The notes below the pieces were generated by a model, which saw only the letters and a program-made list of their open reading frames with translations, did no database searches and was not told the origin of the DNA. The position numbers were made by a program, and so were the translations under genes. 64,000 bases of DNA from Perna viridis. Taxonomy: Eukaryota. The DNA lies in the NCBI GenBank assembly GCA_037379345.1, contig CM074516.1, forward strand, positions 49,265,626-49,329,625, written 5' to 3'. Below are positions 43,856 to 46,081 of the stretch, in pieces; the stretch's first letter is position 1, and each line of letters opens with the position of its first letter.

Positions 43856-43889
43856 GCCGGAATAGCTCAGTTGGGAGAGCGTTAGACTG
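43856..43889 (+). pseudogene. tRNA-Phe 5' fragment (nt 1-34) interrupted by N2; same breakpoint at 54736-54769 before element C
   Basis: Ends ...GTTAGACTG then element sequence. Confidence 0.9.
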
Positions 43890-45426
43890 TGAGACCAGTC
43901 GAGTATGCCCAAGATGTCGGACGCCTTTTTGTCAGTGCTGATAGAAAATGTGATTATTTGTCGGATTACCGTGTTTTGGATTGGATTTACCAGCCATTAC
44001 TTGTGTATTTAGGACATTGTTTCACTAAACGTAAGTCAGATTGACAATTTGATGTATTATAAGCGTTTTTATACTGATTGTGCTTATTCTTCATTTCCCG
44101 TTGAGGGTCTGCATGGGAGGTAGAGCTTCATTGCAAAAAATGGAAAATCTCCCAAAAACGTTGTTAGCTTTGGTGAATATTGTTAGTGAACAATACAGTG
44201 AATTTTCATGGTCTTCTGTTGAACAGAATGGAAAAATGCGAATTAGCTTAAGTTGGACAAACAATCAACCGAAGCGACACAAATCCAAGTCTACACGTAG
44301 TCGTGATCAAAGACGGTATGATGAATTTATTGCGGCCAAAAATAGCGTCGGTGAAAACATAAAAGATCAGACATTGTCAAGTGATACTGGTTCTTCCGAT
44401 GATGATTCCGAATCATCTGACAAACAATCGGACTGGGATATGGAGATATCTGTCGCAGATAAGTTAGAGAAAACCCCGTGTGGATCCTCGCATAAGGTAA
44501 TTAAATCACCGGTTGAACCAAATAAAGAAAAGCAGTCAAGCAAGAAAGGTAGCGGTGGACAATCGATTACTGATAATGTGTGTATAAAGAAGACTATTCA
44601 TAAACCTGTTGAACCACCTCGGCAAGATTTAAATAGATCAAAAGTGAATACCGGTACACAAAAAAGGAAAACGGACAATACACAACCAATTGTTCAAATA
44701 CCACTTTCATTGGACAAAATTGTTATCAAATTTTGTACTGGTAGTATTGGCGTTTTATTAGCATTTTTGCCAGGAACGATGAACATTCTTCATCACTGTT
44801 TAACAGACGATGAAACTATTATTATTGACCGCTCCGTCCATCACTGGAAATATTTTAAGAAAAATATTGAAGAAGATTTTAATGATGTACGGCAAACTAA
44901 ATTTTACAGTGATATAGTGAAAGAAGGAATTCAAAAGATGGAATACTTTTTGAAGAGTCAATAGACCTTATTTGTATGAGAGTGCCATTGAATTGTGGAT
45001 TGTTTGAGTTTAATCATATTTTGTTAAAACTTTATACCAAAGTTGATATAAAGGCGTGGAGGTCCAGCCTTTTTACATAACTTTTGGACAAGAGATTTAA
45101 TTGATATATTGTTAAATTAAAATAATCCTCTTTTCGTGAAGTCATGCTTGTTTTTACCTTTTACGAAAAATGTTGAAAAATAACTAAAAAAGTATGCGAA
45201 TATATTTAAACTGTTGTAAGAAAGTGTAGATGATATGAGCAGACATTTGTATGTTTAATGTATTCTTTCAGGATTGCATGAAAAATGGACAATTGTGAAT
45301 GTGATTGTATTCAGCCTGGATTGTAATACGGACAATTGAGAATTAATGTTTTTGTGAACAAAATATTGATGTAAAAATCTGTGATATATATTTGATGATT
45401 GATAATATAAAGATAAAAAAAAAAAA
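43890..45426 (+). mobile_element. Non-autonomous protein-coding retroposon N2 (no APE/RT), tRNA-Phe-targeted
   Basis: 13-bp TSD GAGCGTTAGACTG; ATAAAGAT + A12 tail joined to tRNA nt 22; 5'UTR, ORF and 3'UTR motifs shared with N1. Confidence 0.88.
44140..44964 (+). CDS. Uncharacterised 274-aa protein of N2, homolog of N1 protein
   Basis: ATG at 44140 aligns with N1 start (alternative in-frame ATG at 44113); conserved terminal domains. Confidence 0.85.
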   Translation: MENLPKTLLALVNIVSEQYSEFSWSSVEQNGKMRISLSWTNNQPKRHKSKSTRSRDQRRYDEFIAAKNSVGENIKDQTLSSDTGSSDDDSESSDKQSDWDMEISVADKLEKTPCGSSHKVIKSPVEPNKEKQSSKKGSGGQSITDNVCIKKTIHKPVEPPRQDLNRSKVNTGTQKRKTDNTQPIVQIPLSLDKIVIKFCTGSIGVLLAFLPGTMNILHHCLTDDETIIIDRSVHHWKYFKKNIEEDFNDVRQTKFYSDIVKEGIQKMEYFLKSQ

Positions 45427-46081
45427 GAGCGTTAGACTGAAGATCTAAAGGCCCCCGGTTCAATCCCGGGTTCCGGCACGGAACAATCCGGCGGCTGGCA
45501 GGATATTTTTTGCAACAGATTTTTACATCAGGTGCATAATAGTAACTCGGGCATCTAATTTGCTATACTTAAAACTGCATGTATTCAAGCGCAGAATGAA
45601 TAAACCGTGCATGCACAGATGCCTGTTATATGAACCGCTGTATTATCTCTCTTCAAACAAGTCTGCCCTCAAGTTGTGACATTGACGTTTGTATATAATT
45701 CTTTTTCCCTCCTTTCTGGCGACTGACAATGGAAGAGGTACGACTTAATTTCATAATGATAATACAAGAAAATGGTAAAGTACGTGTAAACATTTTACTA
45801 ACTAATATTCAGCTAGCCAGGGTGCATATATGTGTATGTATCGACCCCAATATACCTTAAATCCTTCTTTCCGACGACATGTTGGTGGTCTTGTACATGT
45901 ACGGTATTTTGTTTAGCCAGCATAACCGGTCAAGTACTTGCTTTTCGGCATATTTGAATTGATATCAACAATCAAGAATGATGCAACTTTCGATTTATGA
46001 AATCTGAAAAAGATATTATAGTATAGATCCGATGGTGATGTATATATATAAGTACTCAATTAATCTCGTCAGTCCTTGTCA

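Follow-up and report, generated by a model that had tools for sequence, protein, structure and literature searches.

The window, a 64,000-nucleotide stretch of Perna viridis contig CM074516.1 (assembly GCA_037379345.1), carries a tandem array whose 676-678-bp units hold one tRNA-Phe(GAA) gene each; 29 intact genes were called. Eleven inserts break up this array (Table 1). The designations A-E and N1-N3 are working labels.

Table 1 Features of the tRNA-Phe(GAA) array and its inserts, in window coordinates (nt, position in the tRNA gene unless an element is named).
Feature	Position	Strand	Remarks
Tandem array	63..62127	+	676-678-bp units
A1 LINE	1686..7583	+	duplication nt 22 to about 271 (about 250 bp)
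B LINE, two truncated copies	at 8943 and 12361		6-bp duplications each
A2 LINE	16515..22414	+	duplication nt 24-86 (63 bp)
B LINE	24539..30188	+	duplication nt 22-118 (97 bp)
C3 copy, 5'-truncated	30950..33451 (body to 33426)	+	91% to C1; 83-84-bp duplication, nt 22-105
N1 element	40929..42536	+	277-aa ORF (41205-42038); A-type tail
Interrupted tRNA-Phe(GAA) gene, 5' part	43856..43889	+	nt 1-34, including A box
Left copy of N2 target duplication	43877..43889	+	13 bp, tRNA nt 22-34
N2 element	43890..45414	+
N2 ORF	44140..44964	+	274 aa, from the ATG common to relatives
N2 3' tail	45375..45414	+	short-spacer type
N2 poly(A)	45415..45426	+	12 nt
Right duplication copy and 3' part of tRNA gene	45427..45478	+	duplication copy 45427-45439
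A2 LINE, second copy	48178-54081		duplication nt 24-64 (41 bp)
C1 LINE copy, full length	54770..60796	+	element body to 60780, then A16
C1 duplication	54757-54769 and 60797-60809		13 bp

The C1 copy in the window is broken, its ORF2 being split into 756 + 508 aa; uninterrupted C1 ORF2s are present elsewhere in the genome. The tRNA 3' part behind N1 (42537-42560) has an internal deletion after nt 45. At the right edge (62192-64000), and again at a second locus (L260), lies an element with the 5' end of A2, a short first ORF of 216 aa and a distinct ORF2 (A3, 74-75% to A1/A2). The element is probably a recombinant.

N2 is present in at least 12 genome copies at 98-100%, which vary in their first 3-5 nt; 12 of 12 have part of a tRNA gene at the 3' junction, and eight tRNA types are represented. 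The element has a poly(A) end, a target duplication and a single ORF, with no reverse transcriptase (RT) or endonuclease. The ORF is intact at 274 aa in ten of the eleven copies counted. Comparison of N2 with N3 gave a dN/dS of 0.20 (0.13-0.30), with values of 0.08-0.10 in the two end domains; judged by these substitution ratios, the N gene is under purifying selection. N elements encode a protein of roughly 270 aa, and AlphaFold models that of N2 as two confident small domains (about 6-72 and 190-274) with a low-confidence linker between them. In a profile search 66 or more database clusters passed E ≤ 0.001, many with lengths of 255-310 aa; the ten looked up were unnamed and came from contigs of 1.0-4.3 kb. 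We infer that these foreign clusters are tRNA-gene elements too, a setting seen for one, L272.

The N protein resembles little else. The single sequence found no homologue, no Pfam family was matched by more than 1 of 39 members and the PDB held no sequence match. In fold searches the best Atlas score was 0.77, Foldseek gave nothing at E ≤ 0.001, and the best VIA Z was 4.2, obtained with the whole model rather than with domains folded alone. The CCHC knuckle is absent. Alignment of the 39 N proteins with five helper ORF1s (hhalign) gave a probability of 0.25% over 7 columns, with a shallow ORF1 profile that leaves room for very remote homology. At the DNA level N2 has no match to the helper LINEs of the window beyond 20 nt of tail plus poly(A), with D and E compared at the tail alone. 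We considered whether N2 might be a SINE and rejected this: its ORF is intact and selected, and a small-RNA-derived Pol III head was not seen, Rfam finding only the flanking tRNA genes at the N2 locus (L001). One RNA run (X21) contains 62 reads matching N2, two of them at ≥99%; the remainder carry differences and the junction of a decayed SINE-N2 composite. That composite (L013, L014; also L156, L157) has a SINE-like end, then N2 nt 199-1370 at 91-92%, then another fragment which we take to be Penelope-like.

The genome (723 Mb) was searched with N2, C, N1, A2, B, E and two N proteins, and 1.35 Mb of DNA was examined in all, including further array stretches. The search scores the best candidates only, so further helper families may exist; A1, A3 and D were sampled via loci of the other queries, and all search counts are lower bounds. 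ORF2 clustering gave nine LINE families, A1-A3, B, D, C1-C3 and E, the last a newly found helper family absent from the window. In a quick tree built with unnamed and mollusc/echinoderm relatives only, C and E form one clade (SH-aLRT 100) and A with B/D another. Relatives of these LINEs are annotated in Mytilus, Patella and Holothuria. APE, RT and a C-terminal zinc finger occur in ORF2 of B and C and in relatives of E; ORF1 of A2, B and C has a CCHC knuckle, with a zf-CCHC score below the curated cut-off. By domains, multicopy target and poly(A) end, helpers A, B, C, D and E appear Tx1-like. The search found 226 element 3' ends, from which six decayed A-like pieces belonging to an array unit were removed; collapsing tandem-amplified copies left 197 independent insertions, 111 with a target duplication, 53 without and 33 cut by the locus edge. 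Scripted junction positions are good to 1-2 nt, and two targets (C3 'Met 10' and E 'Glu-TTC 24') are doubtful. At L227, L126 and L002 (G000:C8:1.17-1.29 Mb) the array unit itself contains, as a fixed part, an A-like 3' fragment (78-79%) that is old and stands ahead of a degenerate tRNA-Val. E-like tails at six other loci proved to be short decayed pieces without ORFs.

In some 30 tRNA types, insertions of the nine LINE families and of N1-N3 fall at about nt 22. The 3' junction could be assigned to a tRNA, 5S or tRNA-like gene in 196/197 independent insertions. In tRNA targets 163 of 171 insertions begin at nt 20-25, inside the gene body and not outside it. All 20 insertions in Thr-AGT begin at nt 22, across ten families, and all 16 in Arg-CCT begin at nt 23; four in His begin at nt 13-15 and come from A2, A3, E and N2. 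The 3' junction is set by the target gene, not by the element family. It usually follows directly after an A (42/54 target contexts), which is partly by construction and is consistent with poly(A) priming. 5S genes hold 16 insertions at about nt 28-29, and the spots are position-specific across these and the roughly 30 tRNA types. U6 genes have no inserts, compared with nine in a tRNA-like gene arrayed one-to-one with U6 (75 U6 and 70 intact tRNA-like copies in the examined DNA). At L251 (G000:C2:52.2 Mb) U6 genes alternate with a degenerate tRNA-like gene, uncalled by Rfam, that receives insertions at the nt-23/25 equivalent. Short N-protein matches on contig C2 were considered as a new family and traced to one 474-nt N1 fragment amplified with this unit. 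Elsewhere (L033; L194/L222; L212-L215, L218-L221) C1, E and old E-like tails sit in tRNA-like repeats distinct from canonical tRNA genes, possibly SINE heads.

TFIIIC is used by tRNA and 5S promoters and not by those of U6. Tethering to the Pol III machinery, by analogy with TRE5-A, would fit the target set, because tRNA and 5S genes share this factor while U6, which does not use it, is without inserts. The targets are also compatible with a loose sequence preference, in which a G-rich stretch is followed by A and then by G, and the two readings are not separated by these data.

The first-pass annotation had noticed that N2 and C share a target duplication and a terminal motif, and had taken this as a sign of a specific pairing. 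The observation itself is sound. The 13 bp GAGCGTTAGACTG, tRNA-Phe nt 22-34, flank both elements, and both end ATAAAGAT(A)n, unlike N1, which ends TATCAAGAT and has a 38-bp duplication starting at nt 24. The shared duplication may be 14 bp, as tRNA A21 is indistinguishable from poly(A). A pairing by duplication length, on the other hand, does not hold up: 13 bp is seen in A1, A2, B, D, C1, C2 and N2, a spread of the kind that the first-pass annotation had itself named as contradicting the pairing. Such duplications make up 12 of the 111 (A 3/31, B/D 5/25, C 3/17, E 0/7, N1 0/22, N2 1/6, N3 0/3), and lengths of 11-16 bp form the most frequent class in every group (57/111 overall). The seven independent N2 insertions have duplications of 11, 12, 13, 15, 21 and 26 bp and none; the twelfth N2 copy, which lacks its last 26 nt, was left out of this count. 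The suggested comparison of duplication lengths between N2 and the helper groups was run and gave no difference (p 0.22-0.86, at low power with n = 6), and the helper groups are alike among themselves (Kruskal-Wallis p 0.53).

Chance suffices for the N2/C match: when nine insertions were drawn at random from the genome-wide set, 45% of the draws included two or more that agreed in both start and length, and for any one insert agreement with one of six others came up in 9%. The match is no more than chance gives. The other C-group copy in the window has nt 22-105 duplicated, unlike the C1 copy. The 5' junction is variable in every family, with its mode 11-16 bp downstream. Duplications of ≥40 bp are rarer in N elements (2/31) than in helpers (27/80; p 0.003), and in 24 of 30 full-length inserts without duplication the sequence flanking the 5' end derives from another part of that array unit. 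Neither the length of the duplication nor the cut site could be used as a helper signature, there being no signal across families, and inspection of the tRNA types common to N and particular helper groups revealed no pattern. The duplication cannot assign a helper to N2.

The 3' tails were scored against 400 shuffles for 27 pairs per length, uncorrected. N1 has a 19-nt exact suffix in common with A2 (z about 10) and reaches z 7-10 with A tails in general. The tail of N2 is not particular to C: its 8-nt suffix is equally that of C1-C3 and of E, and consists mostly of the AATAAA signal plus GAT. Over 40 nt its likeness to C/E amounts to z 1.9-2.5 (C1 2.5, E 1.9), and it is not significant over 60 or 100 nt. 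The N2 tail clearly resembles those of N3, which is 72% like N2, and of L272. N3 matches E over 12 nt (z 5.8) and C over 9 nt (z 3.1-4.7; C1/C2 4.1-4.7), with no match to A. Two tail designs can be distinguished: AATAAA lies 11-14 nt before the poly(A) in A, B and N1, and 3-5 nt before it in C, D, E, N2 and N3. The 3' UTRs of N1 and N2 are homologous (z 8.6) while their tail types differ; therefore one line changed its tail.

The direction of this change rests on one outgroup element. L272, the one locus retained from 275 pattern matches, is an N-type element from another organism (36% aa); it follows a tRNA-like A box, its target duplication measures 13 bp and its terminus reads AATAAAGAT(A)12. 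In the tree it falls outside the N1+N2+N3 branch (99/96), and grouping of the three short-tailed elements as a clade was rejected (p-AU 0.0001). The tails of E and N3 match that of L272 best (z 6.8 and 6.1) and that of N2 matches it less; the match with C is weak over 40 nt (z 0.8-1.9) and reaches up to 3.5 over 60 nt. Because L272 has the short tail, parsimony over four tips places the change on the N1 branch; the short tail is likely ancestral for N and kept by N2, with the switch to the A type made by N1. The proposal that related satellites have specialised by changing tails is supported in part, in that N1 and N2/N3 are related and differ in tail, and probably wrong in having N2, rather than N1, make the change.

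Poly(A) lengths have medians of 12 in N2/N3, 9-10 in A (p 0.0007-0.006) and 13 in C. Those of N2/N3 are closest to C's yet inseparable from E or B/D among young copies, and length may reflect the assembly or the RNA itself. The 3' UTRs of A1-A3 and D, and less clearly that of B, contain a GC-cored hairpin 30-50 nt upstream of the poly(A) (for example at about 54010-54050 in the window); it was not seen in those of C, E or the N elements, N1 included. Mimicry of the A tail by N1 is therefore incomplete. In A2 the left arm of the hairpin agrees exactly with the tRNA-Phe D loop over 8 nt, which may be a coincidence.

Two kinds of chimera were encountered. In two C2 copies and one E copy (L038, L041, L150:4286-5025 on the minus strand) the 5' end consists of the initial 21-33 nt of N1. 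On the left, each joins its array exactly where the N1 inserts of that array do, and template switching by the RNA was rejected on this ground; a new insertion likely replaced a resident N1. The second kind, at L026/L158 (G000:C15:17668100-17670837), joins the N3 5' end (about 310 nt) to the 3' part of A2. Its tail, TATAAAGAT, is one change from A2 and equal to the last 9 nt of N2.

We propose that N2 is a 1.5-kb, poly(A)-tailed, one-gene element that inserts just behind the A box of many tRNA genes and is copied in trans by the ORF2 of Tx1-like LINEs that share this insertion site; the C/E branch is the likeliest source of help, without C being singled out. We regard this as probable. Copying in trans would follow from the lack of RT and endonuclease in an element that nonetheless has poly(A), duplications and the helpers' junction. 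A C/E-branch helper is favoured by the tails of N3, which match E and C1/C2 and not A, by the grouping of C with E and by N2/N3 poly(A) that is longer than that of A and like that of C. Against this preference, the likeness of the N2 tail itself to C or E is marginal. We infer that E is at least as likely as C to help N2 and N3; N1 would prefer A helpers after its tail change.

The main competing account is one of relaxed sharing, in which any of the nine LINE families copies any N element via its poly(A), and tail likeness reflects a common polyadenylation signal together with occasional recombination at the landing site. No junction feature tells the families apart, the 8 common nt are largely that signal, the last 9 nt of N2 are one change from A2 and one from C/E, N heads are found on helper bodies as chimeras in the arrays, and L1 is known to mobilise any poly(A) RNA (PMC5786205). 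Nevertheless, N1 and its decayed 81% relative have both kept the A-type tail, and N3 and L272 keep the short tail across 36% protein identity. Such conservation suggests selection on the tail, although selection for polyadenylation alone could do so. We consider this account possible but rather unlikely. The switch envisaged by the first-pass annotation, in which N2 acquired the tail of C and inherited its 13-bp cut, can point to the identical duplication and 8-nt suffix in the window, to N2/N3 poly(A) lengths nearest to those of C and to the slightly higher 40-nt score with C1 than with E. The spread of 13-bp duplications over C, B/D, A and N2, the equal suffix of E, and an outgroup that already has this tail, nearer E than C, make it improbable. 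Least credible is a common origin of the two insertions by recombination or conversion between array units. The three helper copies with an N1 head show that junctions are reused; N2 and C, however, differ from the first base after nt 34 without a remnant of the other element, and chance is sufficient to explain their agreement.

Under the preferred reading, of N2 as a passenger of LINEs that share its target, a helper endonuclease would nick beside A21, and the freed T could pair with poly(A) to prime reverse transcription. Short duplications, long ones or deletions would then result, either because the position of the second-strand break varies or because repair draws on a different unit of the array. 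The short AATAAAGAT-type tail would be the old N tail, kept by N2 in decayed form, while the N1 line took the A-type tail. More tentatively, the N protein might package its own RNA or deliver it to the helper ORF2, much as ORF1 does in half-LINEs. More tentatively still, and on balance doubtfully, a guild of animal LINEs could find the inside of any TFIIIC-dependent Pol III gene via the transcription machinery instead of by reading one sequence, and old protein-coding satellites could parasitise it, with the unrelated two-domain protein as a dedicated hijacking factor and the RNA tail setting the branch exploited (N1 having switched from C/E to A).

The 13-bp match matters little in itself; the interest lies in the surrounding system. 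Nine co-active families, and the passengers with them, cut within dozens of different Pol III genes at a single position; the targeting rule is thereby open to direct test, and the shared position might serve as a multicopy landing site when genes are to be inserted. As a non-autonomous retroelement, the N family keeps its own gene, which is not recognisably ORF1, and its database clusters, at least 66 in number, are without annotation. With three N lineages and nine helpers side by side, this genome lends itself to the question of whether the tail determines the helper. A literature search gave no description of LINEs inside many tRNA types or of such a coding passenger; Repbase, with 14 oyster L1-Tx1 entries, lay outside that search, and the supplements of PMC4494074 list Tx1 targets that may bear on novelty.

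Described animal site-specific LINEs read one target sequence, and those of Dictyostelium that reach many tRNA genes land beside them. Keno, Mutsu, Dewa, Tx1L and Tx1-Mar are, like the helpers here, APE-RT LINEs with multicopy targets, each restricted to one kind (U2, 5S, a tRNA-Leu spacer or a transposon) (PMC4494074, PMC3706591), whereas single families here enter many tRNA types and 5S at the homologous position. Tx1-Mar and SINEU form a helper-passenger pair inferred from their common target. TRE5-A and TRE3 of Dictyostelium, members of the L1 group, likewise find many tRNA genes and 5S positionally; for TRE5-A the B box is essential, with ORF1 binding to TFIIIB (PMC5911963, PMC5006619). 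Their insertions lie 40-54 bp upstream or 40-150 bp downstream and leave the gene intact, unlike the elements here, which lie inside it, in sense orientation and in an animal. Insertion inside tRNA genes is also described for NeSL-1_TV, LIN15_SM and LIN25_SM (PMC4640811) and for Dada (PMC3706591, PMC8869645); each family uses one isotype, read by sequence, with a restriction-like endonuclease or DNA transposase and not APE.

For the passenger, the closest parallels are HAL1, HeT-A and Ag-Sponge, which like N2 have one ORF, no RT and a poly(A) end and need an autonomous LINE; their protein is the counterpart of the parent LINE's ORF1p (PMC5786205), in contrast to the N protein with its lack of an ORF1 or Pfam match. 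Exchange of LINE-derived 3' tails between non-autonomous elements, as we propose for N1, is described for SINEs (PMC5786205), which are non-coding and transcribed by Pol III, whereas the N elements code for a protein and lack a small-RNA head.
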